DNA of 64,000 nt from Candidatus Latescibacterota bacterium (GTDB lineage Bacteria > Latescibacterota > UBA2968): contig OZ242010.1 in NCBI GenBank assembly GCA_965204745.1, positions 192,001 to 256,000 on the forward strand, given 5' to 3'. The number at the start of each line of letters is the position of its first letter. Positions within the stretch are counted from its first letter, which is position 1. A program made the position numbers and the translations under genes. The notes below the pieces were generated by a model, which had not been told where the DNA came from, made no database searches, and saw nothing but the letters and a program-made list of their open reading frames with translations. Positions 761 to 52,461 of the stretch are shown here, in pieces.

Positions 761-865
761 GTAAGAGGTAAGACGTAAGACGTAAGACGTAAGACGTAAG
801 ACGTAAGACGTAAGACGTAAGACGTAAGACGTAAGACGTAAGACGTAAGACGTAAGACGTGAGAC
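761..865 (+). repeat. 7-bp tandem repeat array, (GTAAGAC)x13 with degenerate flanking units
   Basis: 13 perfect units at 768-858, with GTAAGAG before and GTGAGAC after; starts just after the KamA stop. Confidence 0.97.
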
Positions 866-929
866 GGTCACCGCGCTGTCTCTCTCGAGTTGTCAGTTGT
901 CAGTCCGCCCTCAACACAGGAGAAATGTC

Positions 930-1514
930 ATGGAAATCACCGTTACAGATGTCGCGCAAACGGAAATTGCCCGCTTGATGCACGAGCAAGAGCAGGTGAT
1001 TACGGGCGTGCGGATCGCCGCCGAGGCCACATCGCCCTTGCAGGCCAATTACCGCCTCGCCTTTGTCGCCGAAGGGCAGGATACGGACCGCGACACCGCG
1101 GTTCCATTCGATGGGTTCAACATTTACATCGACGAAGACAGCGTGCCTTATGCCCAAGACATCACGCTCGATTTTGTCGATGGCCTGATGGGGCGCGGCT
1201 TCAAAATTGACAACCCGCACAAAGTGCCGCCGCACCTCAAGGGTAGCGTGGCTGAAAAAATCCAACTGGTCATCGACGAAAAAATCAACCCGAGCATCGC
1301 CGCACATGGCGGGCATGTGGCATTGGTCGATGTGAAGGAAGACACGGCCTTTCTGCAATTTGGCGGCGGATGCCAGGGTTGCGGGATGGTCGACGTCACC
1401 CTCAAACAAGGCGTGGAAGTCATGATCAAAGAAGCCGTGCCCGAAATCGCGAGCGTCCGCGACATCACGGACCACGCCGAAGGCACAAACCCGTATTACC
1501 AGACGACGCAATAA
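930..1514 (+). CDS. nfuA: Fe-S biogenesis protein NfuA (ATC-like domain + NifU-C)
   Basis: INPSIAAHGG and GGGCQGCG...TLKQGVE motifs; C-terminal DITDHAEGTNPYY; AGGAG RBS upstream. Confidence 0.9.
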   Translation: MEITVTDVAQTEIARLMHEQEQVITGVRIAAEATSPLQANYRLAFVAEGQDTDRDTAVPFDGFNIYIDEDSVPYAQDITLDFVDGLMGRGFKIDNPHKVPPHLKGSVAEKIQLVIDEKINPSIAAHGGHVALVDVKEDTAFLQFGGGCQGCGMVDVTLKQGVEVMIKEAVPEIASVRDITDHAEGTNPYYQTTQ

Positions 1515-1540
1515 CAGCCGAATGATTGCCCCTACGCACA

Positions 1541-1578
1541 AGCACCCGATTCTCGCCTGCGGAATCGGGTGCTCTGTT
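1541..1578 (+). terminator. Hairpin/likely terminator after nfuA
   Basis: AGCACCCGATTC...GAATCGGGTGCT inverted repeat. Confidence 0.55.
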
Positions 1579-1657
1579 ATTAGACCCCGTCTTAATTTTC
1601 CTCCATTATATTTTTTCGCAGTTGTGTATATTTTGGGTTGGGATAGGAGAATAGGGC

Positions 1658-2032
1658 ATGAAAGTCACGAATTACTTCGTCACCGTGCTACTCGAAAAAC
1701 ACCCTGAGACCCTGCGAAATTTACGGGCGATTATCGATGCCGTAGATAGTGGAAAAATGGAAGGTTACGAAGTGGAATCTTCGGGGCGCATTCGCCGATG
1801 GGTGTATATTCCCGATGCAAAAAAATATTTTCGACTCGTCTTTCTGCCCGATCAAAAAACCGTCTTGAATGCCTTTCCAGATGCCGATACAAAAGGAGTA
1901 AATGATGAAAAAACCATTTATGTATTTCCCCGACTCGGACACGTTGGAAATCACGTTGGCCCATGGCCCGGTATCCAAAACCGAAAACGCAGGCATCGAT
2001 GGGGAACACGACAATATCCTCTTTTCTTATGA
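1658..2032 (+). CDS. Putative toxin of a DUF2283-associated TA pair (C-terminus reads through into partner gene)
   Basis: GRIRRW...FRLVFLPDQKTVLNAFPD pattern of small toxin-like proteins found upstream of DUF2283 genes; overlaps the next ORF by about 130 nt. Confidence 0.55.
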   Translation: MKVTNYFVTVLLEKHPETLRNLRAIIDAVDSGKMEGYEVESSGRIRRWVYIPDAKKYFRLVFLPDQKTVLNAFPDADTKGVNDEKTIYVFPRLGHVGNHVGPWPGIQNRKRRHRWGTRQYPLFL

Positions 2033-2360: not shown

Positions 2361-2399
2361 AAGGATGAGATATTCCCCGCTTTGGATTGCACCCCTCCC

Positions 2400-3377: not shown

Positions 3378-3400
3378 CCACAAAGCCGAAGAGAAACCGC

Positions 3401-4216: not shown

Positions 4217-4218
4217 TT

Positions 4219-5022: not shown

Positions 5023-5033
5023 GGAGGTTCTCC

Positions 5034-9554: not shown

Positions 9555-9598
9555 GGGCGGGGACTGACCACTGACCACTGACCACTGACCACTGACAA
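9555..9598 (+). repeat. GGGCGGGGA leader + (CTGACCA)x4 CTGACAA heptamer array
   Basis: Direct reading; relatives at 6345, 34091, 38835, 52165 (reverse) and 889 (reverse). Confidence 0.9.
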
Positions 9599-9612
9599 CT
9601 GAGGAACATCCC

Positions 9613-13446: not shown

Positions 13447-14393
13447 AAGTGGACATCCGAGACAGAGAAGCCTTGATCGCGGTTTCGCCTGCGGCCCTAT
13501 CGGCTTATGCTCGCGGTGTGGGTTGGATTAAGGGTGAGCCTTATGGCGACCATTCCGATGTGTATGATGCCGAGGGGTTGCCAGAAATCATTTTGCCGCG
13601 CACCCAATGCCTCGGCGACTACGCCCATGTCGTATCGCAACTCATCGAGATTTTTGCGCGTGTCGCCGAGGTGGATGAACTCGCGCTATACCGCGACTTG
13701 GTTACGGCGGATTACGATGTGATTCGGGTGCGTGCCGGCGGCAATGAAGGTGCAAAGGGCGATGTGTCCATAGACGCGGGAATCGACCTGATGTGCGGCG
13801 CACGCGATATGCTCGTAGCCACGGCCTGCTCGCTGGAGAAGCCACGTCCGCTCTATCGCACAAATACAATCAAAAAAGCCAGAGACGATTTGAGCCGCGT
13901 GCGCTTGGGGCAGACCGAACAAGGCAGTTTTGTCGTCACTTTGTTGATCCCTTGGACATCGCACTTTAAGCCTATTGAAAGGCGGATAACGAGACGCCTG
14001 TCAGATGCCTTGTCAGCTATCCAAAAAGCGACCAAAAGAACAAATGGCGGAGATGTAGAGGCGTTTTTCAATACCGTGTCTGATGGCGTAAGTGCCAATC
14101 TGTGCGAAGCACTCGTGAAACTCATTGAACCGTTCCCAACATTGGATATCAGCGTGGTTTGGGCACGCACGCGGCCGATGAAAACCGGGCGAGAGACCAT
14201 TCGTTTCGCCAAGGACGACGCGCCAATTTTGCGCGCGGTAGCACGGTCATTCCGACGAGAAACCGATTGGGAAACGTTGCCTCGCCACTTGCAGGATGCC
14301 GTTGACGCCAAGTTGATGGAAGAAGCGCGTGGGGAAAACAGCGCAACACTTCCTCTGAGAGGTCTCCTGCGTGAGACTGGAGAAGCACCGTAG
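13443..14393 (+). CDS. Hypothetical protein coupled to the DUF4365 gene
   Basis: ATGA overlap with the upstream gene; RLGQTEQGSFVVTL and GVSANLCEAL motifs. Confidence 0.7.
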   Translation: MKVDIRDREALIAVSPAALSAYARGVGWIKGEPYGDHSDVYDAEGLPEIILPRTQCLGDYAHVVSQLIEIFARVAEVDELALYRDLVTADYDVIRVRAGGNEGAKGDVSIDAGIDLMCGARDMLVATACSLEKPRPLYRTNTIKKARDDLSRVRLGQTEQGSFVVTLLIPWTSHFKPIERRITRRLSDALSAIQKATKRTNGGDVEAFFNTVSDGVSANLCEALVKLIEPFPTLDISVVWARTRPMKTGRETIRFAKDDAPILRAVARSFRRETDWETLPRHLQDAVDAKLMEEARGENSATLPLRGLLRETGEAP

Positions 14394-14408
14394 CAATGGA
14401 GTTCTTTC

Positions 14409-15248
14409 ATGCGTGTATATCTCGATCGGTTGCGATATATTCTCGACCACGGCATCAAAAAAAATGATCGCACAGGCGTGGGGACGATCTCGTGTTTTGG
14501 TCTGCAAGCGCGTTACGCGATGGCCGATGGATTTCCGGCCGTGACGACCAAGCGATTGGTTTGGAGATCCCTGCTCTCGGAACTGCTGTGGTTTGTGTCT
14601 GGGTCGGACAACATCCATGATTTGAAAGCCCATTTGAAAAGCAACCGGCTGTGGGATGGCAATTACGCGGACTATTTGAATCGCTTGGGACTGGATGCAA
14701 ACGACGGTGGCATGGGGCGCATTTACGGGGTGCAATGGCGGTGCTGGCAAGGGGCCAATGGCGAGGTGGTGGATCAACTTCAAGAGGCGATAGATTTGAT
14801 TAGACACAATCCCGAGTCCCGGCGCATTCTGGTCAATGCGTGGAATGCGGCTGAAGTAAGTCCGCAAGACGTGGCCCTGCCCCCGTGTCACAACTTGTTT
14901 CAATTTTACGTGGCAGAGGGCAAATTGTCTTTGCAGATGTATCAGCGGTCCTGCGACATGTTTTTGGGCGTGCCCCTCAACATCGCGTCCTATTCCACAT
15001 TGTTGCACATGGTCGCCAAAATCACAGGGCTTGTGCCGCACGAATTTATTCACGTCCTCGGCGACGCCCACATTTACCTCAACCACCTCGACGCGGTCAA
15101 AGCGCAACTGTCTCGCACGCCGTATCCCCTGCCCCAGTTGCAGATTGCAGACCGCGGTCAAACCGAGATCGATGATTTTGTGATGGACGATTTTGAACTG
15201 ATCGATTACCAGCACCATCCGACCATCCGAGCGAAAATGGCGGTGTGA
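14409..15248 (+). CDS. thyA: Thymidylate synthase
   Basis: DRTGVGT, ALPPCH, YQRSCDMFLGVPLN and GDAHIYLNH motifs. Confidence 0.96.
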   Translation: MRVYLDRLRYILDHGIKKNDRTGVGTISCFGLQARYAMADGFPAVTTKRLVWRSLLSELLWFVSGSDNIHDLKAHLKSNRLWDGNYADYLNRLGLDANDGGMGRIYGVQWRCWQGANGEVVDQLQEAIDLIRHNPESRRILVNAWNAAEVSPQDVALPPCHNLFQFYVAEGKLSLQMYQRSCDMFLGVPLNIASYSTLLHMVAKITGLVPHEFIHVLGDAHIYLNHLDAVKAQLSRTPYPLPQLQIADRGQTEIDDFVMDDFELIDYQHHPTIRAKMAV

Positions 15249-15288
15249 AGGCGGGGAGAGGGAAGAGGCAAGATACTCTCTTAAAAGG

Positions 15289-16296
15289 TCAAGGGGTTTT
15301 CGGGGTGATTCGATAGAATTTTTCGCCCTCAAAATCTTGGTCATGGCGCAACATGCCCCAGATCGAATGGAGCAACTTTCGCATCACCGCAACGATAGCC
15401 TGCAAAGGTTTCTTGCCGCGGGCGATGAGTTGGTCATAGAAGGCTTTGACATGGCCTTCGTGTCTGATGGCCACCCAGGCAGGCATATAGAGGGCATGGC
15501 GGAGGTACTTATTCCCGGTTTTCGAGATGCGTCTTTGTGGATTGGCGGTTCCGGATTGTTTGGGTTTGGGATCCAGGCCTGCATGTGCGACCCACTGGGG
15601 CGGTTGCATCTCCTCTGGCAAAAGGGTCAACTCGGCCAAGAGCCGCAAGGCACTCGTTTGCGCGATGCCAGGCGTCGAGCAGAGGCGTTGGTAGGCACGC
15701 TTGAGGGGCTCATCGTGCAAAACGAGATCGAGGGCTTGGCTTTCCAAGTATGCAATCCGGCGTTTGAAGTGTCGAATATTCACCTGAATATCGCGTGCGA
15801 TGAGACGTGTGCTGCGGATGTGGTAGCTCTGCGCGTGGTTGCGGCTCTGTTCGCGGATGATCTCCTGCTTGAGTTGGTCAATGCGTCTGGTGAGGGCTTG
15901 CAGTTGAAGCCGTTGCTCGCTCGGCGCTTGCCAAGGCACAAAAGGCATGCGCTCGGCATAGTCGAGGATCAACAACGCATCCTTCGCATCCGTCTTCGCC
16001 CGTTGCATGCAGGCTTGGGCGTACTTGCTCATCGCTTTGGGATTGACGACCATGACCTTTGTGTGGCGATGCCGATGCAAGGCCAAGGCCACCCCCAAAC
16101 TGTAAAGCCCGGTCGCTTCGAGGCACACAGAGACCATGTGCCCGCCCTTCGTGAGCCACTTCAGCAACCGCTTATGCGCTTGGGGATCATTGGCAAAGGT
16201 CGCTTGCATGACAGCTTGTCCGGGTCTGGACAGGGCAACGGACAACGTGCGGGCACTGACATCAATGCCGGCAAAAGCGGGGTGAGATTTCGACAT
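15289..16296 (-). CDS. IS110 DEDD recombinase (335 aa)
   Basis: GIDVS, CLEATG and KTDAKDA (DEDD); C-terminal AGLDP...QSG...ISKTGN...AVMRKL. Confidence 0.95.
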   Translation of the reverse strand: MSKSHPAFAGIDVSARTLSVALSRPGQAVMQATFANDPQAHKRLLKWLTKGGHMVSVCLEATGLYSLGVALALHRHRHTKVMVVNPKAMSKYAQACMQRAKTDAKDALLILDYAERMPFVPWQAPSEQRLQLQALTRRIDQLKQEIIREQSRNHAQSYHIRSTRLIARDIQVNIRHFKRRIAYLESQALDLVLHDEPLKRAYQRLCSTPGIAQTSALRLLAELTLLPEEMQPPQWVAHAGLDPKPKQSGTANPQRRISKTGNKYLRHALYMPAWVAIRHEGHVKAFYDQLIARGKKPLQAIVAVMRKLLHSIWGMLRHDQDFEGEKFYRITPKTP

Positions 16297-16309
16297 GGGG
16301 GCCTCCTGT

Positions 16310-16550
16310 GATGAGGGGGTTGTAAGGGATCTGGTGCGCGCTCGGGGTCGCGTCCCGACCATTGACGCCAAGTCTACCGGTCTTGTATATGCAGCCTCAA
16401 GGGGCTTAGATACTCTTCGGCATAGACCCGGCGGTCGGGGGGCCTATCTTACCTACAAGGTCATCGCCTTCAAGAGGGGCCGGCCTTCCCCGAGCCGGGC
16501 ATCAAGATGGCTTATCTCGATACGAGGGCGCAACTCCTAATTAACCCTTA
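16310..16550 (-). ncRNA. Predicted bridge RNA of IS110 copy 1 (limits approximate)
   Basis: Two stem-closed internal loops. Target guides at 16447-16454 and 16472-16479 match the flanks. Donor guides at 16381-16388 and 16408-16416 match the element ends. Confidence 0.85.
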
Positions 16551-16672
16551 CTTCCAAGATACAAGAGGGGAGACGCGAGAGGGGAGAGGGAAGTTTAGTC
16601 ACGAGCGGTACAACTGGCGACAGATTGAAGGAGATGACGAAATGAAAAAGAGCGATTTCGAGCAAACCAGCG

Positions 16673-24549: not shown

Positions 24550-24692
24550 TCAGTCCATTGTCTGAATCGCGGATTAAACGGATTGCGCGGATTGCACGGA
24601 TTACCGCGCCGCCGCCCGTGCGTGCCCATCCCGTCCTACCGCAAGCCCTATCCCCAAGTAAGAGGCAAGAAGTAAGATACTCTCTTAAAAGG

Positions 24693-25700
24693 TCAAGGGG
24701 TTTTCGGGGTGATTCGATAGAATTTCTCGCCCTCAAAATCTTGGTCATGCCGCAACATGCCCCAGATCGCATGGAGCAATTTTCGCATCACCGCAACGAT
24801 AGCCTGCAAAGGTTTCTTGCCCCTGGCGATGAGTTTGTCATAAAAGGCTTTGACATGGACTTCGTGCCTGCAGGCCACCCAAGCAGGCATGTAGAGGGCA
24901 TGGCGGAGATATTTATTTCCGGTTTTCGAGATGCGTCTTTGTGGATTGGCAGTCCCGGATTGTTTGGGTTTGGGATCCAGGCCTGCATGAGCGACCCATT
25001 GGGGCGGTTCCATCCCGTCTGGCAAGGAGGCCAGCTCGGCCAAGAGCCGCAAGGCACTCGTTTGGGCGATACCGGGCACCGAGCAGAGGTGCTGGTAGGC
25101 ACGCTTTTGGGGCTCGTCCTGCAAAACGAGTTTGAGGGCTTGGTCTTCCAAGTAGGCAATGCGGCGTTTGAGGTGTCGAATATTCACCTGAATATCGCGT
25201 GTGATGAGGCGGGCACGCTTGACGGGGTAGTCCTGCGCGTGGTGCCGGTTCTGTTCGCGGCTGACCTCCTGTTTGAGTTGGTCAATGCGTCTGGTCAGCG
25301 TTTGCAGTTGCAGGACGTGCTCGCTCGGCACTTGCCAAGGCACAAAGGGCATGCGCTCGGCATCATCGAGGATCAACAACGCATCCTTCGCATCTGTCTT
25401 TGCCCGTTGCATGCAGGCTTGAGCGTACTTGCTCATCGCTTTGGGATTGACGACCATGACCTGCGTGCAGCGATGCTGATGCAAGGCCAAGGCCACCCCC
25501 AAGCTATAACGCCCGGTCGCTTCGAGACAGACCGAGACCATGCGCCCGCCCTTGGTGAGCCACTTCAACAGGTGCTTGTGCGCCCGAGGCGCGTTGTCAA
25601 AGGTGGCTTGCATGACCCCTTGTCCGGGTCTGGACAGGGCAACGGACAACGTGTGGGCACTGACATCAATGCCGGCAAAAGCGGGTTGAGTGTTCGACAT
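24693..25700 (-). CDS. IS110 DEDD recombinase (335 aa), diverged paralog of copy 1
   Basis: Same DEDD and QSG motifs as copy 1; intact ORF. Confidence 0.95.
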   Translation of the reverse strand: MSNTQPAFAGIDVSAHTLSVALSRPGQGVMQATFDNAPRAHKHLLKWLTKGGRMVSVCLEATGRYSLGVALALHQHRCTQVMVVNPKAMSKYAQACMQRAKTDAKDALLILDDAERMPFVPWQVPSEHVLQLQTLTRRIDQLKQEVSREQNRHHAQDYPVKRARLITRDIQVNIRHLKRRIAYLEDQALKLVLQDEPQKRAYQHLCSVPGIAQTSALRLLAELASLPDGMEPPQWVAHAGLDPKPKQSGTANPQRRISKTGNKYLRHALYMPAWVACRHEVHVKAFYDKLIARGKKPLQAIVAVMRKLLHAIWGMLRHDQDFEGEKFYRITPKTP

Positions 25701-25713
25701 CGGGGCCTCCTGT

Positions 25714-25955
25714 GATGAGGGGTTTGTAAGGGATCTGGTGTGCGCTCGGGTTCGCGTCCCGACTGTTTGCCCAGTCTACCGGTCTTGTATATGCAGCCTC
25801 GATGGACTTAGATACTCTTCGGTATCAACTCGGCGGTCGGGGGGCCTATCTTACTTACAAGGTCATAGCCTTCAAGAGGCACCGGCCTTCCCCGAGCAGG
25901 GCATCAAGATGGCGTGTCTCGATGCGAGGGCGCAACACCTAAATTAACCCTTTCT
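25714..25955 (-). ncRNA. Predicted bridge RNA of IS110 copy 2 (limits approximate)
   Basis: Target guides at 25849-25856 and 25874-25881; donor guides at 25783-25790 and 25810-25818. Confidence 0.85.
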
Positions 25956-26132
25956 GACAACATACAAGAGGTAAGATCCACCCACCGCCCCGCCGTGTCT
26001 GAATCGCGGATTTGCGCGGATTAGGAGATTGCGCGGATTACCCCTCTCCGCCCGTGCGTGCCCGTCCGCACTACCTCTCCACCCGTGCGTGCCCAGCCCA
26101 TCTCCGCCCTGCCATGTGCGTTAGCCCCATCT

Positions 26133-30403: not shown

Positions 30404-30556
30404 CTATAGGCGGCGGGGGATGCGAAGGACATAGCGGATGAGAACGATGAAGCGGTGGTGGGGATGTGGGGGGTAATCCGCGCAATCCCCTAATCCGTTT
30501 AATCCGCGATTCAGACACGGGCGGTTGGGTGGCTCTCGCCTCTTACTTCTCCTCTC

Positions 30557-31012
30557 TTACTTGGAGAGAGGGCTTGCAAGGATGTCTTTCAGCGAGTCAA
30601 ATCCGCCTTGGAAGACCCCGTTGCCGATAAAATCGACGAGTTCCTCTTCTTCGTCTGGTGGACAGGCAAATTCCGCGGTCCATTGGATGTACGTGCGATT
30701 GCCGTCTGTAATCGGGGTCAATCGCAAGGTCGCCACGTAGTTTTCAACGGCCATGGGCGATTCGAGGATGGAATACGTACACGTAAAGGTGGCGTCGCTC
30801 AGGGTGAGCAGTTGTTCGCGGATATTGCCACCATCTTTGAGATTGAAATTGCGGATGCAACCCACTTTGTCGCTGGGTTGGTCGCCTTCGATGTGGCTGT
30901 CTGCAATTGCGGGATGCCATTCGGGAAGGGCATTAAAATCGCGGATTTTCGCCCACACGTCGTCGATAGTTGCGTCGAGAACCGAACTGACAAAAACACT
31001 GGCCTTCGCCAT
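30557..31012 (-). CDS. SRPBCC/START-fold (MxaD-like) protein
   Basis: VWAKIRDFNALPEWHP and IREQLL motifs. Confidence 0.85.
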   Translation of the reverse strand: MAKASVFVSSVLDATIDDVWAKIRDFNALPEWHPAIADSHIEGDQPSDKVGCIRNFNLKDGGNIREQLLTLSDATFTCTYSILESPMAVENYVATLRLTPITDGNRTYIQWTAEFACPPDEEEELVDFIGNGVFQGGFDSLKDILASPLSK

Positions 31013-31475: not shown

Positions 31476-31580
31476 TCTCACCTCTCGCCTCTCACCTCTC
31501 ACCTCTCGCTTCTCACCTCTCACCTCTCGCTTCTCACCTCTCACCTCTCGCCTCTCACCTCTCACCTCTCGCCTCTCACT
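31476..31580 (-). repeat. Degenerate heptamer array (GTGAGAG/GCGAGAG/GTGAGAA on the minus strand)
   Basis: About 15 units; overlaps the phoR stop codon. Confidence 0.95.
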
Positions 31581-33367
31581 TGCAGGGTCAAGCCAAATGT
31601 CGATCCCTTGCCCTGTTCGCTTTTCACATAGACGCGCTCGCCGTGGGCGTCCATGATATGCCGCACGATAGACAAGCCCAAGCCCGTGCCGCCCATGGCG
31701 CGGGAACGGCCTTTATCGACCCGGTAGAACCGCTCAAAAATGCGGTCCATCGCCGAAAGCGGAATCCCGATGCCCGTGTCTTTGACCTCTAAGGCGATGC
31801 GTTGCTTTTTCGTTTGTGCGGGCGGCGGTGAGGAATGGCTGACTTCGTCGCGTGCCTGGTTTGGATCGCGCATCTGAATCCAGATTTGACCGCCTTTGGC
31901 CGTGTATTTGATGGCGTTGTCGAGCAGGTTGAGCAATGCCTGTTCGATGAGTTTTCGGTCGCACTGCACGCGGATGTTTTCAGGGAGATCGACCGCGATG
32001 CCGAGTGTCTTTTCCGCGGCCAGCGGCCGGATTTGCCCGACAACCGAATCGACTACTTCACGGATGGGATGGACGTGGATTTCGAGCGGGACCGTGCCGG
32101 ATTCGATGCGGGACAAATCCAGAATGTCTTCGACCAGGTTGTGCAGGCGGTCCGCGTGGTTGTTGATCATCTGCACAAAGCGGCGCGCGGCTTCTTTGTC
32201 GTCTAAGGCGCCGTCTGCCAGCGTGGCCGCACATCCCTTAATGGTGGTCAGCGGGGTTCGCAATTCGTGCGACACATTGGCGACGAAATCCTTGCGGACG
32301 CGCTCTAGGCGGCGCAGTTCCGTGATGTCGTAGAAGATCGTGACCGAACCCGTGCAACTATTGTCGTCTTGCAAAATGGGTGCGACCTGCACGTCGAGAT
32401 GGCGTTCTCGGTCGTCGGAGTGGATCAGGTCTAAAAACACCACTCGCCCGGTTTTCAGGGCTTGTTCTATCGCGTCTTGCACATCCCGATGGCGCACGAG
32501 TTCGATGGGCATGCGCCCTTTGGTGGCCCGAGACGCGCCAAATAATTTTTCAAACGTGCGGTTGCCCATGAGGACGCGCCCGCTTTGATCTGTGACCAAA
32601 ACCGCTTCTGTGATGCTCGTCAAAACCGCTTCCAACCGCGATTTTTCGAGGGTCATTTGCCCGGTGTGCATTTGGATTTGCCCGCGCATCTCGTCTAAGG
32701 CCACGCCCAACTCGCGCAGTTCCCGCGTGCTGCCAAGGCGCGGCGCAGGGCGTTCATACATCCCCAACGCGACATTGCGGACGACGCCGATCACATCTAA
32801 AATCGGGCGCGAGACATAGCGCGCAGTGCCATAAGCCACCAGCAAAGCCAAGCCCAAGCCGAGTAGGGATGCCATCCAAACGGCCCGGGAAATCAGGCGT
32901 GTAAGATGCCCATCGCGCAAGGGCAGGGCCAGGCGCAGGACAAACTGACTATCGCCAAGTTCTGGCACCGCAGTCGCCACGTACAATATCTCGTCGCCGA
33001 GGTGAGACCGCACCTGGCTTCCGCTATCCTGTTGCCGTGCGGCCATAATCTCTGGGTGATCGGCGAAATTTTCCAATGCGGGATGATCGGCTTCGGAATC
33101 GCCCAATACCCGGCCCGAGGCGTCTATTAGGGTTGCGCGCACGCCCAAGCGCACGCCCACTTCATTGACGAGTGGGCCGAGGGCTTCGCCGGAACTCGCC
33201 GAGTCGCTGAACTGGGCGCGTGCAAGCCGCACTTCTCGCAAAAGCGTCTGCTCGAGGTGAGCGACCCAAAAGTCGCGCATGGCGCGGTTGAGATAGAGGT
33301 GAAGAGATGTGAGCACCAGGGCCAGTACACCGAGGCAGGCGAGCATCCCTTTCCAGTGCAAACGCAT
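31562..33367 (-). CDS. phoR: PhoR-like sensor histidine kinase (HAMP-PAS-HisKA-HATPase)
   Basis: [15 protein letters not shown] and [14 protein letters not shown]...GTGLGL motifs. Confidence 0.85.
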
Positions 33368-34090: not shown

Positions 34091-34132
34091 CTGACAACTG
34101 ACAACTGACAACTGACAACTGACAACTGACAA
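34091..34132 (+). repeat. (CTGACAA)x6 heptamer array upstream of phoB
   Basis: Direct reading. Confidence 0.93.
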
Positions 34133-38672: not shown

Positions 38673-38878
38673 TCTTGCCTCTTGCCTCTTGCCTCTTGCC
38701 TTTCGCCTCTTGCCTCTCACCTCTTGCCTTTCGCCTCTTGCCTTTCGCCTTTCGCTTCTTGCCTCTTGCCTTTTGCCTCTTGCCTCTTGCCTCTTGCCTC
38801 TTGCCTCTCACCTCTTACTTGTGGATGGGTTGTTGGGCGGGGACTGACTACTGACAACTGACTACTGACAACTGACAA
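38673..38878. repeat. Degenerate (CCTCTTG/CCTTTCG) heptamer array followed by a leader + CTGACTA/CTGACAA array
   Basis: About 21 units at 38673-38820; second family at 38835-38878. Confidence 0.95.
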
Positions 38879-43349: not shown

Positions 43350-43550
43350 TCAGCCTGTCGAGCCAAAGTCGGCGACGAAGATGAGGAAATCGGAGAATCC
43401 AATCTCGCCATCGCCATTGAGATCGCACCGGGCGTCATATCGCTCCTGTCCGAGCCGCGATCCAAACTTATCCGCAAAGGTCAAGAAGTCGGCGAAATTC
43501 ACATTGCCATCGCCATTGCCATCTGTGGCGGTCAAGGAATAGGCTTTCAT
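43350..43550 (-). CDS. Stand-alone dockerin/EF-hand-like mini-protein (or detached C-terminus)
   Basis: DGNGDGNVNFADFL...DLNGDGEIGFSDFL; ATGA overlap with the upstream gene. Confidence 0.6.
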   Translation of the reverse strand: MKAYSLTATDGNGDGNVNFADFLTFADKFGSRLGQERYDARCDLNGDGEIGFSDFLIFVADFGSTG

Positions 43551-46500
43551 TGGAAGTGGGAGGCGGGATAGAGGCTTCGGATGTAGGGTTCAATTTCTTG
43601 AGCGGTCGTGCGCGTGGCAGTTGGCTCGATGACGTTCCCTCTGAGGAGGGCCTCGTTCCGGAAGAAGAGGACATATCGAATGATCAGGATTATATCCGAG
43701 AACAGCCTCACATCGCCATCGCCATCCACATCGAGAATGTTCTGACCGACCAACGTGTCGAGGTAGGGGGTAATGGTTTGCGGGGTCGTGCGCGTGGCAT
43801 CTGGCTCGATGACGTTCCCTCTGACGAGGGCCTCTTCCCGGAAGAAGAGGACGTATCGAATGACCAGGATTATATCCGAGAACAATCTCACCCGGCCATC
43901 GCCATCCACATCCAAGTTGGCACTCGGGGTTTCGTCATCGGTCAGGGTCAGGGTCACGGGTGCGGGTGCGGTGATGCCTTGGGCGTTGTTTGCGGTTGCA
44001 GACACCGTGACCGTCTTCTCGTCTGCCTGGTCGTTGTTGTCCTCTGCGGTGATCGTCACGGTGCCCGTGCTCGTTGTGGTCGTCACCGCGATGATCAGGG
44101 TGTCTGCACTCGATAGCGTGAAGTCGCTCGCAGTCGCAGGGGACACAGGCGTAGCAGAGACCGTGATCGTCGTGATCGCGCTCGATGGATGCGATAGGGT
44201 CGCCGTGATCGTGGAAACCTCGGCGTTTTCCGAGATGGACGAGGGCATCAGCACCAACGTCACGGTCGGCGCATCTTCATCGTCGGTCGTCGTCACTGGA
44301 ACATCCTCATCCGAAAGGGTGTTGTAGTTGGCATCGCCGCTTGACGAGGCGAGTCGCACCGTCCAGGTGACGTTCCCGTCGTCGATGATGTCGTCTTGCC
44401 CGGTCACGGTCACGGTTTGTGCCGTGTTATAGCCTGACGTCGTGAAGGTCAGCATCGCAGGCTCAACCCGCCCCTCGCTCGGGTCTTGGCTCGTCACCGA
44501 AATCGTCACCGCCGCCGTGGGTTGCGTCAGCAGGGCCACCGTGAAGGTCGCCGAGCCACCGGCCTCTGTGGCCTGCCCGGTCACCGCGCTGATGTCCAAG
44601 CCGAAATCGTTATCGCGGTTGACCATGTACACGATGATCGCGGAGAGCGCGTCGTAGTTGGTGTCCTGCGTATCCGTCTGGTTCACCGAAAGGGTGACCG
44701 TATAGTTCTGGTTGCCATCGACGTTGTTGGCGGGGGCATCGTCCTGTCCGGTCACGGTCACGGTTTGTGCCGTGTTCCATGTTGTCGATGAGAAGGTCAG
44801 CACCGAGGGCGATACAGTACCTTCCGTCGTGTCTGAACTGACCACCGAGAGTGCCACATTTCCGGTTGGCTCGGAGGCGAGCGTGACCGTGAAGGTCTCT
44901 GCCCTGCCCGACTCTGTCGTGTGGAGCCTGACCGTCGTCGTGGTCATCGCCGACACCTCAATCGCCGCCTCGTCGTCATCGGTGATCGTCAGCGTCACAG
45001 CCTGCACGGTGCCCGCGCCGTGGTCGTTCTCCACAGCAGCGGTCTGCACCATCACCGCGTTGTCTGATGCGTCTATGTCGTTGTCCACGGCGGTGAGTGC
45101 CACCGTGTCCGTCGCGTTCGCCGTGCTCCCAGCCGCGATGGTGATCGTCGAATCCGACCCTACGGTATAAGCATTCGCCACCGGGCGTACCGTGATCGTT
45201 GTCGCCGCGCTCGATGGGTGTGTCAGCGTCGCGCTCACCGTGCTCACGCCGCCGGCCTCCGAGATGGACGCGGGCGACAGCATTAGTGTCACGTCCGGCG
45301 CGGCGTCATCGTCTGTGATCGTCAAAGCCGTGCCGGTCACACTGCCTGCGCCTTGGTCATTGCTCACCGCAACAGACACGGTCACGTCGCGATTAGGCGC
45401 GTCTTGGGTGTTGTTCACCGCTGTAATGACCACGGTATCCGACGCGTTCGCCGTGCTCCCGGCCGCGATGGTGATCGTCGAATCCGACCCCACCGTGTAA
45501 GCACCGGTCACAGGGCGCACCGTGATCGTCGTTGCCGCGCTCGACTTGTGAGACAGCGTCGCTGTCACCGTCGAAACACCGCCGTTCTCTGCAATCGACG
45601 CGGGCGACAGCGTCAGTGCCACATCCGGCGCGGCCTCATCATCGGTGATCGTCAGCGTCACGTTAGACGATAGCACCGCCCCATTGCCACCTGCCACCGT
45701 TGCAGACACGGTCACGCGCTTGTCCGGTGCATCGGTCGTATCGTTCACCGATGTGATCGTCACGGTGCCCGTGCTCGTCGTCACATTCGCCGCGAAGGTC
45801 AGCGTGGTCGCGGTCGATAGCGTAAAATCGCCCGCAACCGCAGGGGCCACCGCGGTCGCTGAAACCGTGACCGTCGTCGCCATGTTTGTGATGCGATCCA
45901 GCGTCGCCGTGATCGTGGAAACCTGGGCATTCTCCGTAATCGACGAAGGAGTCAAAACCAACGTCACGTTCGGCACGTCGTCATCGGTCAGCGTCAGCGT
46001 CACATCAGTGACCGATCCCGTGCCTACGCTGTTGGTTAGCGTACTCGACACGGTCACCGTCTTGTTCCCCGTAGCATCGGCGTTATCCTCCCCTGTGATC
46101 GTCACGGTGCCCGCGCTCATCGTTTGCCCCGCCGCGACGGTCAGCGTGGGCGGCGTACTCAGCATGTAGTCGGCCGGAACCGCAGGTGACACAGGCGCCA
46201 CTGTCACCGTAATCGTCGTCGGATGGCTCGACGTGTGAGACAGCCTCGCGGTCACGGTCGAGACACCGCCGTTCTCCGTAATTGACCCATCAGACAAAAC
46301 CATCGTCACGTCCGGCGCAGCGTCGTCGTCCGTCAGCATTATAGTGCCGGTCACACTACCCGCGCCTTGGGCGTTGCGCGACACAGCGGATATGGTCACG
46401 GTGCGAGCAAGCTCGTCTCGGGTGTTGTCCAACGTTGTGATGACCACCGTGTCCGACGCGTTTATCGTGTCCCCGGCCGCGATAGTGATCGTCGTATCCG

Positions 46501-49500
46501 CCGATATCACCGCGTAAGCACCGGTCACCGAGCGCACCGTGATCGTCGTCGCCGCGCTCGATGGACGCGAGAGCGACGCCGTGACCGTCGCCGCCTCGCC
46601 GTTCTCCGAAATCGACGCGGGATTCGGCGTCAGCGTCACCATCGGCGCAAGGTCGTCGTCGGTGATCGTCAAAGTGCCGGTCACCCTGCCCGAGACTTGG
46701 CTGTTGTGCATCACAGCGGACATGGTCACGTCGCGATTAGGCTCGTCTTGGGTGTTGTCCACCGCTGTGATGACCACCGTATCCGACGCGTTCGCAGTGC
46801 TCCCGGCCGGTATGGTGATCGTCGAATCCGCACCCACCGTGTAAGCATCCGCCACTGGGCGCACCGTGATCGTCGTTGCCGCGCTCAACGACCGTGACAG
46901 CGTCGCGGTCACGGTGCTCATCCCACCGCTTTCCGAGATCGACGAGGGCGTCAGTGCCAACGTCACGACCGCGGGTTGGAGCTGAAATTGCACGGTGGTG
47001 TCCAGGCCGGCATACTTCAAGGCCGGATACTGATCCATCGCGCCAAAGGTCCACGGATCGTCGTTGCCGGGTTGTCCGTCTATGTTGGCGTTCCAGCCGT
47101 AGTAGGTGTCGTTGGTGGTGGCACCGTAGGTGGTGGGGCTCTGGAGCTCGCTGGTCGTCTTGCCCGCCGCGCCGCTACCGCCGAAGCTCGTTGGGCGCCC
47201 GCTGGTTGTGGTGTCCCAGTAGCTATCGGTAACCGTGCCCGTGCCGGCATTCGACTCGCCCAACAACCCGCCGATAGATGTCATCGACCCGCTGGAGAGG
47301 CTGACCGCGCCGGTGGAGTAGGAGTTTGTTATGGAGCCGGCGGCGGCTTTTGAGCCTACCAGCCCACCGAGGTTCTGAGTCGCGCTGACGGATGCGAGGG
47401 AGTAGCTTGTAGAAATGGAGCCTCCGGTCCAGCCGACCAGACCGCCGACGACATTGTCGCCCGTCATGCGACCGGTGGTGTAGCAGGCGACGATTTCGCC
47501 GCGATTGCCGCCGACCAGAATGGCACTAAAGTCGTCTGCCGTAACATCGGCGTCGGTTACGCCCAGCGACTCGATGCGGGAGTTGGTGCCGGTGCCGCCG
47601 AACAGTGCTTGGTAGCTAACGGTGTTGCGGCTGATGAACAGGTTTTGGACGGTGTAGCCGTTGCCTTTGAAATCGCCTGTGTATCGTAACGCTGGGCTGG
47701 CGTCGGAGCCGATGGGCATCCAGCCTTGGCCGCTATTCCAGTAGGCGGCGTCTGCTGAGGTGATTGCGCCATCGTTGTTCTCGTCAAAGTCCAGGTTGTT
47801 GAGCAGTTCGTAGCCAGTGCAACCGCTGGAAGGGCAACCCTTGCTCGCTGACAAGTTCCCGTTGGGAAAGGCGGCGTTGTAGGTGGTCGTATCGGCGGTC
47901 GTGGCACTTGAGTCTATGGCACCATCGCCATTGATATCCCAGCGCATGGCATGCAGTTGGGCCAAGGTCGAGACCTCGAGGAGGCCATCGCTATCCGTGT
48001 CGTAATTCACGGGTTGGGCAGCGTACTGCGCCGTGGTGTCCAGGCCGGCAAACGTCAAGACCGGATACTGCTTTGTCGTGCCAAAGGTCCAGGGATCATC
48101 ATCGTTGGTCCCCGAAGCATCTATGGTCAGATCGTCCCAGTTGGCATAGATGCCGCTCGCAGACGTGATCGATTGTAAGTCGGAGGTCAGCTTGCCCTCC
48201 GGCGCAACAGTATCGCTATCATCGGCAATGTCGCTTGTTTGCGTGTCCCAGTAGCTATCGGTCACTGTACCAGCCGAACTGCCCACCAACCCGCCTTTCG
48301 TGCCGGCACCCGTGACTGCGCCCGTCGCGTAACTGGCGGTCACGCCACCGCCGCTCGCGATTTGACCCACCAACCCGCCGGCCACCGCGTTGCTGTGTCC
48401 CGCGAACACAGAGCCCAGCGCGTAAGACGCCACCACCTCGGTCTGATCGGTCAGCCAACCCACCAAACCGCCGGCCAATCCGTCACTCGTCACATGTGCA
48501 GGAACCCGCACAGAGACGAGCGCGTAGCTGCTCACAATGCGATTAGTGCCCGAAGTGCGATAAGACCGACCAACCAAACCACCCACACCCCACCGCGACC
48601 CCGAAACGCGACCCGTCACATAACACGACGAGATGGTGCCCCCACCACCTTGATTACCGGTCAGACCACCCACGCGGTCAGCACCGGTCACATTCACATT
48701 CAACAACCCCAACCCCGAAACATCGCCATCAACCGCATGGAACAATCCTGTATTATGCCGAGACCCCCGGTTGATGTACAAGTGGGAGATCGTCTTGTTG
48801 TTGCCTTTGAACGTGCCGCCGTAAGGCCCCACAGGGTCCCAGCCGGCGCCGCCATTCCAGTAGGTGGCGTCTGCTTGGGTGATCGCGCCGTCGTTGTTCT
48901 CGTCAAAGTCCAAGTTGTTGAGCAACTCGTAGCCGATGCAACCTGTGGAAGGGCAACCCTTGCTCGCTGACAAGTTCCCGTTGGGAAAGGCGGCGTTGTA
49001 GGTCATGGCATCACTATCGGCGACGACCCCATCGCCATTGAGATCCCAGCGCATGGCATGCAGTTGGGCCAAGGTCGAGACCTCGAGGAGGCCATCGCTA
49101 TCCGTGTCGTAATGCACGGGTTGGGTAGCGAACTGCGCCGTGGTGTCCAGGCCGGCAAACTTCAAGGCCGGATACTGCTTTGTCGTGCCAAAGGTCCAGG
49201 GATCATCATTGTTGGTCCCCGAAGCATCTATGGTCAGATCGTCCCAGTTGGCATAGATGCCGCTCGCAGACGTGACCGATTGTAAGTCGGAGGTCAACTT
49301 GCCCTCCGGCGCAACAGTATCGCTATCATCGGCAATGTCGCTTGTTTGCGTGTCCCAGTAGCTATCGGTCACTGTACCTGAGTTTTCCGCCAGCCCATGC
49401 TTGTGCAGGCAGGCCCCCGTCACTGATCCCAGCGAGTAGCTCGACGCGATCGTCGCACCCGAACCATTGGCACCTACCAACCCTCCGCCAGTGCCCCACG

Positions 49501-51184
49501 GCCCCGACTGATTGCACACCACAGACGCCGTGGCGTAACTCGCCACGATGTACGACCCCCTCTGAGCGGCGCCCACCAACCCGCCGACATTGGTGTTCGC
49601 CGTGACCGACCCCGTGACGTAACTCGCCGCGATCCGACCCTTGTTCAGACCCACCAGCGCGCCCACCGTGCCCTGACCCGTATTGATCACCGCGTTGACC
49701 AACCCCAAAGAGCGGATGTGGGCAGTGGTATCCGTGCTTGCGAAAAATCCCGAATAGTTGGTGTAGCGGTTGATGTACAGGTGGGAGATCCTCTTGCCGT
49801 TGCCCTCAAATGTGGCGGTGTATGGGGCGGTGTTGCTACTGCCGATGGGTGCCCAGCCCGCGCCGCCATTCCAGTAGGTGGTGTCTGCTTGGGTGATTGC
49901 GCCGTCGTTGTTCTCGTCAAAATCCAAGTTGTTGAGCAACTCGTAGCCGGTGCAGGTCCCGGACGGGCAACCCATCCGGCCGCTACTGGTGGTGTCGTGG
50001 CTGGGAAAGGCGGCGGCATAATCGGCGTGGGTAGCGTCGCCATTGCCGTTGAGGTCGTGGCGAATGGCGTTGAGTTGCGCCAAGGTGGTGATGTCAATCA
50101 GGCCGTCGTTGTCGTCGTCGTAGTCAATCCCAACCACGGAAGGACTGACGTACTTCAGTACCGGGTACTGACTACTGGTGCCGAAGTTCCACGGATCGTC
50201 TCTGCCTTGGCTATCGCCGGTGGCAGTATTGCCATCCAAGTTCAGGTTCCAGTTGGCGTAGATGCCGGTGTAGCCAGTGGGATTTTGGAGATTGCTGGTG
50301 GACTGACCGCTACCTATTAAGATTGACCCTGAAGCTTTTGAGGAGTCCCAGTAGCTGTTCGACGCGCTACCTCCGGCTTCGTCCCCGACTAATCCGCCGG
50401 GAGAACCACCGGTGCTGAGGGTACCTGCGAAGTACGAATTTGTTATAGTGACATCGCCCCACACCTCGCCTACCAAACCGCCGATTGAGCTTTGGTTGTT
50501 GGTGGATGTAACGGATGCATGGGAGTAGCTAGTTGAGATACTTCCTGTGCCAGCCCGGCCGACTAATCCAGAAAGTCTTCCTCCGCCCGTCAGTGTGCCG
50601 GTGGTGTAGCAGGCGACGATTGTGCCGGAATTTTGGGATACCAGAATGCCGCCCCGGTTTTTTAACGTAACATTGGCGTTGATGATGCCGAGGGTTTCGA
50701 CGCGGGAGCTGGATCCAAATTGGGAGAACAGTCCGATATAGTTGGTGGAGCTACGGTTGATGAACAGGTTGTCGATAGTGTGGCTATTGCCCTTGAAATT
50801 GCCCGTGTAGGTACCACCTATGGGTAGCCATCCGGCGCCGCTGTTGTAGTAGGCGTCGCCGGAGTCTGTGCCGATGGTGCCGTCGCCGTCGGTGTCTAGG
50901 TCAATGTTGGCGGTGAGTTCGTAGCCGACGCAGGTAGTGAGGCAACCCATGCCTGTGGCGGCGTTGGGGAATGCGGCGTTGTAGTTCGCAGTATCCGTAG
51001 CGGCTACGACCCCATCGCCGTTGAGGTCCCAGCGAATGGCGTTGAGTTGGGCGTGGCCGGACACCTCAATGTAGTTGTCGTTGTCCGTGTCGTAGTCGAC
51101 GGTGGTTTGGGCAAAAGCAGGCCCTGATGCCACCAGCATGCCCAACGCGACCAGGGCCAACAAGCGAGCGTAGCGGGGCATCAT
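43547..51184 (-). CDS. Giant secreted repeat protein (4 GLUG-type modules, about 9 Calx-beta-like repeats, dockerin-like end)
   Basis: Signal peptide ending AFA/Q; four YDxDxD-initiated modules with GGLVG motifs; repeats ending TDDD/E; terminal LDVDGDG repeats; 2545 aa. Confidence 0.88.
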   Translation of the reverse strand: MMPRYARLLALVALGMLVASGPAFAQTTVDYDTDNDNYIEVSGHAQLNAIRWDLNGDGVVAATDTANYNAAFPNAATGMGCLTTCVGYELTANIDLDTDGDGTIGTDSGDAYYNSGAGWLPIGGTYTGNFKGNSHTIDNLFINRSSTNYIGLFSQFGSSSRVETLGIINANVTLKNRGGILVSQNSGTIVACYTTGTLTGGGRLSGLVGRAGTGSISTSYSHASVTSTNNQSSIGGLVGEVWGDVTITNSYFAGTLSTGGSPGGLVGDEAGGSASNSYWDSSKASGSILIGSGQSTSNLQNPTGYTGIYANWNLNLDGNTATGDSQGRDDPWNFGTSSQYPVLKYVSPSVVGIDYDDDNDGLIDITTLAQLNAIRHDLNGNGDATHADYAAAFPSHDTTSSGRMGCPSGTCTGYELLNNLDFDENNDGAITQADTTYWNGGAGWAPIGSSNTAPYTATFEGNGKRISHLYINRYTNYSGFFASTDTTAHIRSLGLVNAVINTGQGTVGALVGLNKGRIAASYVTGSVTANTNVGGLVGAAQRGSYIVASYATASVVCNQSGPWGTGGGLVGANGSGATIASSYSLGSVTGACLHKHGLAENSGTVTDSYWDTQTSDIADDSDTVAPEGKLTSDLQSVTSASGIYANWDDLTIDASGTNNDDPWTFGTTKQYPALKFAGLDTTAQFATQPVHYDTDSDGLLEVSTLAQLHAMRWDLNGDGVVADSDAMTYNAAFPNGNLSASKGCPSTGCIGYELLNNLDFDENNDGAITQADATYWNGGAGWDPVGPYGGTFKGNNKTISHLYINRGSRHNTGLFHAVDGDVSGLGLLNVNVTGADRVGGLTGNQGGGGTISSCYVTGRVSGSRWGVGGLVGRSYRTSGTNRIVSSYALVSVRVPAHVTSDGLAGGLVGWLTDQTEVVASYALGSVFAGHSNAVAGGLVGQIASGGGVTASYATGAVTGAGTKGGLVGSSAGTVTDSYWDTQTSDIADDSDTVAPEGKLTSDLQSITSASGIYANWDDLTIDASGTNDDDPWTFGTTKQYPVLTFAGLDTTAQYAAQPVNYDTDSDGLLEVSTLAQLHAMRWDINGDGAIDSSATTADTTTYNAAFPNGNLSASKGCPSSGCTGYELLNNLDFDENNDGAITSADAAYWNSGQGWMPIGSDASPALRYTGDFKGNGYTVQNLFISRNTVSYQALFGGTGTNSRIESLGVTDADVTADDFSAILVGGNRGEIVACYTTGRMTGDNVVGGLVGWTGGSISTSYSLASVSATQNLGGLVGSKAAAGSITNSYSTGAVSLSSGSMTSIGGLLGESNAGTGTVTDSYWDTTTSGRPTSFGGSGAAGKTTSELQSPTTYGATTNDTYYGWNANIDGQPGNDDPWTFGAMDQYPALKYAGLDTTVQFQLQPAVVTLALTPSSISESGGMSTVTATLSRSLSAATTITVRPVADAYTVGADSTITIPAGSTANASDTVVITAVDNTQDEPNRDVTMSAVMHNSQVSGRVTGTLTITDDDLAPMVTLTPNPASISENGEAATVTASLSRPSSAATTITVRSVTGAYAVISADTTITIAAGDTINASDTVVITTLDNTRDELARTVTISAVSRNAQGAGSVTGTIMLTDDDAAPDVTMVLSDGSITENGGVSTVTARLSHTSSHPTTITVTVAPVSPAVPADYMLSTPPTLTVAAGQTMSAGTVTITGEDNADATGNKTVTVSSTLTNSVGTGSVTDVTLTLTDDDVPNVTLVLTPSSITENAQVSTITATLDRITNMATTVTVSATAVAPAVAGDFTLSTATTLTFAANVTTSTGTVTITSVNDTTDAPDKRVTVSATVAGGNGAVLSSNVTLTITDDEAAPDVALTLSPASIAENGGVSTVTATLSHKSSAATTITVRPVTGAYTVGSDSTITIAAGSTANASDTVVITAVNNTQDAPNRDVTVSVAVSNDQGAGSVTGTALTITDDDAAPDVTLMLSPASISEAGGVSTVSATLTHPSSAATTITVRPVANAYTVGSDSTITIAAGSTANATDTVALTAVDNDIDASDNAVMVQTAAVENDHGAGTVQAVTLTITDDDEAAIEVSAMTTTTVRLHTTESGRAETFTVTLASEPTGNVALSVVSSDTTEGTVSPSVLTFSSTTWNTAQTVTVTGQDDAPANNVDGNQNYTVTLSVNQTDTQDTNYDALSAIIVYMVNRDNDFGLDISAVTGQATEAGGSATFTVALLTQPTAAVTISVTSQDPSEGRVEPAMLTFTTSGYNTAQTVTVTGQDDIIDDGNVTWTVRLASSSGDANYNTLSDEDVPVTTTDDEDAPTVTLVLMPSSISENAEVSTITATLSHPSSAITTITVSATPVSPATASDFTLSSADTLIIAVTTTTSTGTVTITAEDNNDQADEKTVTVSATANNAQGITAPAPVTLTLTDDETPSANLDVDGDGRVRLFSDIILVIRYVLFFREEALVRGNVIEPDATRTTPQTITPYLDTLVGQNILDVDGDGDVRLFSDIILIIRYVLFFRNEALLRGNVIEPTATRTTAQEIEPYIRSLYPASHFQ

Positions 51185-51200
51185 TTTGTCCCCCTCTCGA

Positions 51201-51222
51201 GGGGGGGGGGGGGGGGGGGGGG
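51201..51222. repeat. 22-nt poly-G/C homopolymer beside the RBS of the giant gene
   Basis: Direct reading. Confidence 0.8.
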
Positions 51223-51619
51223 TACACTGTACTGATCATCCTAACAGACTGCTTTGCAATGAAATAGAAGCACACGCCAAGACGAGAATGGGCACCATGA
51301 ACCGCTCTTTTCGCGGAAAAAACATAGGACCAAATGAGGTTCAAACAGCGGCTGAAAATGGCGGTGATCATCCGGAGCCTCCTTTGCAAAAGCACTGTCG
51401 CACAGACCGGGCGCGGCTTTTCCTCCGCGCTCAAAATCGAAATAGCGAATGGGTAAAAAATTAAAAATTACGCTATTGTTTGTCAAGTGGTAAAATGACG
51501 ATGGGACCGGTGGCCAGTCAAGCGAGAAGGACAGGCACAGGGGCCTGTGCCTGCGACGGATGGCGACAGGGCGTGCGATTAGCCACAAAAGGCACAAAAA
51601 CACAAAAGGGCGATGGGTC

Positions 51620-52040
51620 TTCCGAGGGATTGTGCGAGGGGGGTTGGGGTTTCTATGGCGTGATCCATTCGCCCAAAGCCATCAAAACAGCCAGGGATAC
51701 AACCCTTTAAGAAAGCCATGCGCTCCCCCTTTCCTCGTAGGAAAGGGGGCCGGGGGGATAGGTCCTGCGAGGAAGGGGGAATGGCGAGAGGTTGTGCGAG
51801 GGATTGTGTGTAAGGGTTTTTGGATTTTCATGGCGTGATCCACTCGCTCAAAGCCATCAAAACAGCTAGGGATACAAACCTTTAAGAAAGCCATGCGCTC
51901 CCCCTTTCCGCGTAGGCACAGGCGTAGCCTACAATGAGCGAAGCGAATAACGGGGGCCGGGGGGATAGGTCTATGGCGGTAGGGTGGTGTGGGGTAATCC
52001 GCGCAATCCTCTAATCCGTTTAATCCGCGATTCAGACACG
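51620..52040. repeat. Tandem MITE-like units plus an AATCCG-rich element
   Basis: Two copies of an about 180-bp unit (AAAGCCATCAAAACAGC...AAGAAAGCCATGCGCTCCCCCTTTCC), inverted relative to 43049-43215. Confidence 0.8.
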
Positions 52041-52461
52041 GGTGGCAGGGCGGCGAGGATGGCCACGCTCATCGCTCTAAAACAAAATGTCAACAGAACC
52101 TCGTTCATGTCTTTGGATGATGGGTTGCGGCTTGCTTCTTACTCGCTTTCTACTCTTAATTCGCATTGTCAGTTGTCAGTCCGCCCCGCCCAATCCCCGT
52201 CGTAGGGGCGATGCCCCCGTGCTCGCCCAAAGATACAAGACGGAGAGGGATTGGGCGGAAAGGGGGCCTGTCCCTACGATTCATTCCTCGCATTTTGGGG
52301 TAGTCGGGCGGCCCTCTTACCTCTCCCGTCTTACTTCTTACCCCCGGGCCGGGCGGCTGGGTGGGGACTGACCACTACCCCAAAAAAAATTTGACTTTTA
52401 GGCGGGAATTGTAATATATTGGCACGCAAACAAATCAACAGTCCCAACCTCACATCAGGAA

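Follow-up and report, generated by a model that had tools for sequence, protein, structure and literature searches.

IS621-like IS110 elements with predicted bridge RNAs matching a host-specific 7-bp tandem repeat in a Latescibacterota bacterium

Introduction

Insertion sequences (ISs) of the IS110 family aim at repeated intergenic sequences by means of a programmable RNA, and the natural targets of this bridge RNA named in the accessible text of PMC11208160 are repetitive extragenic palindromic (REP) elements and the ends of Tn21-type transposons. IS621 of Escherichia coli (PDB 8wt6) is the REP-targeting case described there, in agreement with what the initial annotation of the DNA studied here had stated. 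ISPpu9 and ISPpu10 of Pseudomonas putida similarly insert in many copies of one conserved intergenic repeat, a REP-type sequence with a stem-loop (PMC12288879; 10.64898/2026.03.19.712850). Here we analyze two IS110 elements, e1 and e2, in a 64,000-nucleotide stretch (the window) of a Latescibacterota genome, a metagenome-derived assembly of a sponge-associated bacterium in a single 5.48-Mb contig (G000). We propose that these are IS621-like elements whose bridge RNA is programmed for neighboring pairs of units in a 7-bp tandem repeat specific to the host, a reading to which we assign a probability of about 0.9.

Cyanobacteria are known for short tandemly repeated repetitive (STRR) heptamers, 7-bp units arrayed between genes throughout the genome and falling into several sequence families. 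The heptamers described here belong to a different phylum and have different unit sequences, and the literature searched held no link between STRR heptamers and IS110. Nor did it report short tandem repeats as the target of any IS110 element, the preprints that mention tandem repeats doing so in other senses, with the proviso that the supplementary target tables of PMC11208160 may contain cases. The aiming of IS110 elements at intergenic repeats is thus known; the use of short tandem repeats as a natural bridge-RNA target is, with respect to the literature searched, new. These targets are direct 7-bp tandem units without a palindrome and so differ from the REP element of IS621 and from the stem-loop targets of ISPpu9 and ISPpu10, their multiplicity coming from tandem repetition.

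Results

Read on the element strand, e1 and e2 both start with TGTAT, finish with GAGAGTAT and have CT on each side, an IS621-like IS110 organization of 1291 bp. Their parts and flanks are as follows, in window coordinates.

15273..16563, minus strand: element e1, 1291 bp, guide class A, TGTAT...GAGAGTAT, CT core on both sides; 51 other genomic copies align end to end
15289..16296, minus strand: e1 recombinase coding sequence, 335 aa; Pfam PF01548 1.2e-24, PF02371 4.8e-20
16365..16545, minus strand: e1 left-end non-coding region, predicted bridge RNA with target-binding and donor-binding loops, from the fold and a 14-homologue consensus structure
16467..16474, minus strand: e1 left target guide CCCCTCT(T), in the sense of the top strand (left target plus core); matches the left flank CCCCT-CT-T
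16435..16441, minus strand: e1 right target guide AGGTAAG; pairs fully with CT+TACCT, and with CT+TGCCT if one G·U pair is allowed
16564..16593, minus strand: e1 left target flank, core CT, then heptamers CTCCCCT CTCGCGT CTCCCCT and onward; 4-unit array at 16566-16593
15255..15272, minus strand: e1 right target flank, core CT, then TGCCT CTTCCCT CTCCCC
24677..25966, minus strand: element e2, guide class B2 (TGCCTCT / AAGTAAG), 88.9% identical to e1
24693..25700, minus strand: e2 recombinase coding sequence, 335 aa; Pfam PF01548 1.5e-24, PF02371 7.7e-20
24656..24676, minus strand: e2 right flank, three heptamer units; an intact second target for the element's own guides, TGCCTCTTACTT, at 24656-24667

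Both recombinases combine the IS110 domain PF01548 with a C-terminal Transposase_20 domain (PF02371) containing the conserved serine region. Among proteins of solved structure their best sequence matches are the ISCro4 transposase (PDB 9t56; 7.6e-40), with which the GIDVS, EAT, KTDA.DA and SK.G motifs align in a protein-only comparison, and IS621 (5.8e-36), which has both Pfam domains and aligns over residues 8-326.

Upstream of the recombinase gene lies a non-coding left end of about 260 nt. We aligned 14 such left ends, from this genome, two other genomes of the same genus and one Gemmatimonadota contig, and found them near-invariant save for two short blocks, whose variable columns are the guide positions. 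The consensus structure has 47 pairs, six of them with compensatory changes, arranged in two stems that each hold a large internal loop, and the loops lie at the guide positions, as in IS110 bridge RNAs. The first loop reads CCCCTCT(T) on its 5' side and AGGTAAG on its 3' side in e1, and TGCCTCT(T) and AAGTAAG in e2. The second, or donor, loop reads AGAGTATCT / ATATACAAG; in all copies read, AGAGTATCT is identical to the right-end terminus followed by CT, and ATATACAAG reverse-complements CT+TGTATAT, so that this loop complements the right and left ends once they are joined, a further feature of the family. Also typical of IS110, terminal inverted repeats and target duplication are absent, and CT stands at both junctions in 51 of 52 copies. 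One copy (G000:C1:5198951-5200241) has an extra base inside its left end, TGCTATCTT instead of the usual TGTATCTT, which changes the right-donor sequence.

The elements resemble IS621, as far as the accessible text of PMC11208160 describes it, in their CT core, two-loop left-end bridge RNA, repeated intergenic target and guide strands, the left guide pairing with the bottom strand and the right guide with the top. They differ in that the target is a pair of 7-bp tandem units rather than a palindromic REP element, in a far higher copy number (52) and in the coexistence of several guide classes in one genome.

Searching the genome with the element (blastn) returned 73 pieces, 52 of them full length; many copies are identical, and the remainder are about 96%, 95% or 88-89% identical to e1. 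From the two window copies, the initial annotation had placed the elements inside heptamer runs, quoted on the plus strand as GGAAGAG GCAAGA/G GGGAGAC for e1 and GTAAGAG GCAAGAA GTAAGA/G GTAAGAT for e2 (slash, junction), and had assigned these runs to one family with three arrays elsewhere in the window. Both runs are as quoted, and the three are genuine 7-bp tandem arrays, each unoccupied:

749..866, minus strand: target-family heptamer array, 15 units in phase, predominantly CTTACGT; Tandem Repeats Finder 749-866 (begun at 761 in the initial annotation)
31476..31581, plus strand: target-family heptamer array, 15 units, CTCACCT/CTCGCCT; Tandem Repeats Finder 31476-31579
38673..38820, plus strand: target-family heptamer array, about 20 units, mostly CTTGCCT; Tandem Repeats Finder 38673-38816

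Set in CT phase (CTNNNNT), these arrays and the IS flanks share one family of units, such as CTTACGT, CTCACCT and CTTGCCT. Arrays were defined as runs of three or more in-phase units of CT[CT]N-C[CGT]-T and sought in a version of the genome from which the IS copies had been deleted in silico. This yielded 606 arrays with a combined length of 24,059 bp, equal to 0.23% of all (position, strand) pairs, and none in a shuffled 2-Mb sample. Tandem Repeats Finder also gives 606 rows of period 7, a coincidence, for its rows include a second heptamer family. Against this background, 45 of the 52 junctions lie in an array or at its edge, all 45 in the same orientation and none in the opposite one (binomial P ~1e-111); most copies therefore lie inside arrays, as the initial annotation had expected of the family at large. 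The flank on the element strand is of CCTCT type in 52/52 copies and of the complementary type in none, and a 13-mer search gave 9 matches where 0.11 were expected. At G000:C1:1121593-1124180 two full elements stand head to tail, separated by 9 bp (CTTACCTCT), at adjacent unit junctions of one array.

The target comprises five left bases, the CT core and five right bases, and thus takes up 12 of the 14 nt in a pair of neighboring units; the initial annotation had described the guides of the window copies as nearly two units long. Four guide classes coexist in the genome:

Class A, CCCCTCT / AGGTAAG, 45 copies: left half CCCCT in 41
Class A right halves: TACCT 24, TGCCT 17 (one G·U pair), TACTT 1, TGCCC 1, CCCGT 2
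Class B1, CGCCTCT / AAGTAAG, 4 copies: CGCCT or CACCT, then TACTT (3) or TACCT (1)
Class B2, TGCCTCT / AAGTAAG, 2 copies: e2, TACCT then TACTT, one wobble; copy 602782, TCCCT then CACCT, 3 mismatches
Class C, TCCCTCT(C) / AGGTGAG, 1 copy: TCCCT then CACCT, a perfect match including the extra base after the core

Accordingly, the target is CCCCT-CT-T[A/G]CCT for class A (as a 12-mer, CCCCTCTT[A/G]CCT), [C/T][G/A]CCT-CT-TACTT for classes B1 and B2, and TCCCT-CT-CACCT for class C. Counting a G·U wobble as a pair, 43/52 copies show no mismatch at the ten non-core positions, and in 45/52 a copy's own guides pair best with its site or tie for best. Across the 52 copies the wobbles fall on the A/G position at which the units themselves vary (T/C on the other strand), which extends to the whole genome what the initial annotation had seen in two. 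Its further suggestion, that paralogs with drifted guides partition the repeat variants, agrees with the occurrence of four classes, each in its matching unit pair, and with a second species described below. The commonest pair of units, CTTGCCT-CTTGCCT (220 occurrences), is not targeted; the classes aim at junctions of unlike units.

These data also bear on whether the preference for arrays is guided by RNA at all. If slipped-strand or otherwise unusual DNA at tandem repeats drew the recombinase, the match to the guides would be incidental. A stem-loop in the target DNA does add specificity for ISPpu10, according to the accessible part of 10.64898/2026.03.19.712850, and six class A copies match by one half-site only (four at TACCT then TACCT, two at CCCCT then CCCGT). 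A structural preference of this kind would, however, have to account for the constant phase and orientation of all 45 array insertions, for the avoidance of the commonest unit pair while guide-matched pairs are used, for a second heptamer family of about 320 arrays that is never used, and for the covariation of guides and flanks through four classes and three species. We regard it as very improbable. The half-matched copies recall the half-match off-target insertion of IS621 in the accessible part of 10.64898/2026.08.31.748434, with the difference that ours are natural, fixed copies and those are assay reads.

The flanks were likewise weighed as possible traces of common descent, the elements having spread by duplication of the IS together with its flanks or by homologous recombination between arrays. 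Class B copies do have about 40 nt of right flank in common, and copy 602782 resembles a recombinant. The common class B flank is, however, a genome-wide composite repeat that also occurs without an IS (for example at window 30480-30620), while class A flanks diverge within 14-30 nt of the junction and the neighboring sequence varies from copy to copy, which leaves descent by duplication a most doubtful account of the pattern. The composite repeat runs taatccgcg...attcagaca...ggtgg, then a few heptamers, then cttacttggggatagggcttgcgg, and has more than 100 partial copies in the genome; it hosts e2 (window 24520-24676 and 25967-26100) and the other class B copies, and window 30480-30620 is an empty paralogue. 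In copy 602782 (G000:C1:602782-604072; L028) the first part of the left end is e2-like and the rest resembles the 96% subfamily, and it may be a recombinant between paralogues.

Many sites cognate to the guides carry no element. The genome holds unoccupied intact 12-mers for class A (70), class B1 (37), class B2 (34) and class C (7), where simple arithmetic gives an expectation of about one for a pair of random 12-mers. Removing the IS copies raises the number of class A sites to 106, about one third of which are therefore occupied. The three empty targets named by the initial annotation are present as written, two of them cognate to class B1 and the third an 11/12 match to class A:

30537..30548, plus strand: empty target CGCCTCTTACTT, exact match to class B1 guides; the surrounding composite repeat is a paralogue of the one around e2
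38809..38820, plus strand: CACCTCTTACTT, unoccupied; fits the class B1 guides given one G·T wobble and lies where the 38673-38816 array ends
52311..52322, plus strand: GCCCTCTTACCT, agrees with the class A guide at 11/12 positions; a 3-unit array begins here

A comparison of occupied and empty alleles at the predicted sites had been proposed with the initial annotation, and empty alleles of the e1 locus were found in public sequencing runs. Twenty runs contain at least part of the stretch, nine of them at least half its words, all represented by contigs only; the runs that bear a plain organism label are labeled sponge, marine or metagenome. Two runs, X3 and X10, come from two other sponge metagenome studies and supply low-depth contigs. 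A 1517-nt contig of X3 spans 13902-15273 and 16564-16666 and has 11 other letters where G000 has e1; its allele is a continuous array, two units longer than the rejoined flanks of G000, with the class A target intact. An 852-nt contig of X10 joins 15260 to 16575 and lacks the element; this allele is shorter, and the class A target is absent. These empty alleles indicate that the e1 insertion is polymorphic and that the arrays vary in length. A joint in X1 that skips exactly 1293 bases has only 25 letters on one side and was not counted as an empty allele. The array after thymidylate synthase (15249-15272) is absent from the thyA 3' flank of five other genomes of the same genus (L036-L040), in which the downstream genes differ; the array at thyA is specific to the G000 lineage.

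A search of genome contigs found close relatives of the recombinase in two complete genomes labeled Latescibacteria/Latescibacterota and a distant one (48% identity) on a Gemmatimonadota contig, and a scan of metagenome contigs with the recombinase gave two loci, both distant. Among 31 genomes, matches at E <= 1e-60 occur in G000, G018, G020 and G032 only. The copies examined outside G000 compare as follows.

G020: 18 copies examined, 76-78% identity to the e1 protein; guides CTCGCCTCT / AGGGAG; 17/18 at arrays, flanks c[g/a/t]cct-CT and CT-cccgt
G018: 7 copies examined, 80-84% identity; guides ATCC[T/C]CCTT / AGAAAAG or AGGAAAG; 0/7 at arrays, flanks cc[c/t]cc-CT and CT-tttct
G032: 3 copies examined, 54% identity (different family, same order); guides ATTGCGCAT / (G)ACGTTAG; at non-heptamer sequence

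The initial annotation had spoken of a clade that uses tandem repeats. Among the relatives examined, this holds only for the lineages in the two array-rich genomes, G000 and G020, and fails for those of G018 and G032, which aim at non-heptamer sequences. Windows of four consecutive units number 1566 in G000, 1288 in G020, 70 in G003 and 0-12 in the other 15 genomes of the genus searched (5 in G018). In a quick tree the copies of each host form their own clade, the order of the three host clades being unresolved. Array abundance is therefore a host trait that the guides of the resident IS follow, and retargeting among unit variants took place within G000.

The same distribution could be read in reverse, with the heptamers belonging to or made by the element, whether transported at its termini, deposited as footprints or accumulated through rounds of insertion and excision, so that arrays would be the product of the IS and not its target. 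Array-aimed copies and counts above 1000 four-unit windows do indeed coincide in the same two genomes, and the flanks of different copies are alike over 10-40 nt; yet unit number and order vary between copies, about 560 arrays in G000 are without any IS, and G003 has its 70 windows with no recombinase match. The untargeted second heptamer family is, moreover, equally expanded in G000, the e1-free allele of X3 consists of a plain, uninterrupted array, and IS110 recombination is described as scarless in the accessible text of PMC11208160. We consider an origin of the arrays from the element highly unlikely and retain the arrays as its target.

Three loci of G020 (L017, L022 and L024) carry a lone copy of TGTATCTT, the element's first 8 nt, roughly 100 nt upstream of the IS. 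After it come a hairpin repeat (GGACAGGC...GCCTGTCC) and an array that runs up to the full IS. The solitary sequence may be a left-end remnant or the product of one-sided recombination. A gggggcctgtccctacgatt motif of these upstream segments also occurs at window 52262-52281.

The second heptamer family, ACTGAC[A/C/T], is unrelated to the first; its arrays in the window lie at 9563-9602, 34091-34132 and 38843-38878. It is expanded in G000 only, with 891 four-unit windows vs 0-45 in the others of five genomes searched, and none of the 52 IS copies sits in it. Its arrays often adjoin a CCTCT-type array through a conserved linker of about 25 nt.

In the window, e1 sits 25 bp past the stop codon of thymidylate synthase and e2 about 130 bp past an ABC ATPase gene. 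For the whole genome we used a crude proxy for genes, a tiling of the longest open reading frames (ORFs), which labels 87.5% of the sequence as coding; the midpoints of 199/606 arrays fall inside such ORFs. The arrays are free of stop codons and tend to lengthen ORFs, so in-ORF counts are upper bounds. Arrays and insertions are depleted from long ORFs. The idea of intergenic "safe harbours" put forward in the initial annotation stands as to depletion; as to safety, insertion at these sites may be neutral, a reasonable reading.

Elsewhere in the window, a 2545-aa ORF (43547-51184, minus strand) contains a 330-bp tandem repeat at 45100-45716 (1.9 copies, 78% matches), and its start is closely preceded by 22 consecutive G (51201-51222).

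Discussion

We propose a model in which the element would leave its site as a circle, joining its right and left ends. Read from the ends of e1 and e2, this junction would yield TTGACC-N18-TATCTT, a putative promoter; a promoter scan found no promoter-like site within the integrated left end, and no joint of such a circle turned up in the contigs of the public runs. The joined ends (AGAGTAT-CT-TGTAT) presumably resemble the IS621 donor. From the junction promoter the left end would be transcribed into the bridge RNA, whose donor-binding loop would hold the joined ends and whose target-binding loop would hold the 12-nt window in the array. The DEDD/Ser recombinase would then swap strands at the CT core, giving scarless insertion in one orientation and one repeat phase, and point changes in the guides would create classes that land in different unit pairs. 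With about 600 arrays, mostly intergenic, a guide for a common unit pair would find dozens of landing sites, and the element stands at 52 copies.

Several observations weigh against this model. Nine of the 52 copies occupy sites with one to three mismatches to their own guides, and copy 602782 combines class B2 guides with a class C target. Seven of the 52 junctions fall outside the strict array definition; by eye most of these are degenerate runs, and the set includes the pair of elements 9 bp apart and the copy with the extra left-end base. By the crude gene proxy behind the intergenic claim, 18/52 junctions lie inside ORFs. Rfam gave no match at the gathering score over the whole window and only chance-level ones (E ~1) in a permissive search of the left end, and blastn of the element against E. 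coli genomes found no match, so the likeness to the IS621 bridge RNA rests on architecture and protein.

A less conservative possibility, which we consider unlikely, is that element and arrays feed each other, the recombinase acting on array units through target-target or half-match events and so driving array expansion and turnover. Such feedback would explain the restriction of more than 1000 four-unit windows to the two genomes with array-aimed copies among the 19 genomes of the genus searched, and, if it occurs, the IS would be a generator of hypervariable intergenic DNA.

With these data, short tandem repeats join the natural targets known for bridge-RNA recombinases. The data also form a large natural set from one genome that combines 52 insertions with four guide classes and about 150 unoccupied cognate sites. 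In this set, retargeting of the guides needs few changes (one to three bases), a G·U wobble is tolerated at one right-guide position (17/45 class A copies), and half-matched sites are used by about one copy in eight. Collectively, these findings indicate that the expansion of a host-specific repeat can steer the evolution of IS guides and permit very high copy numbers.

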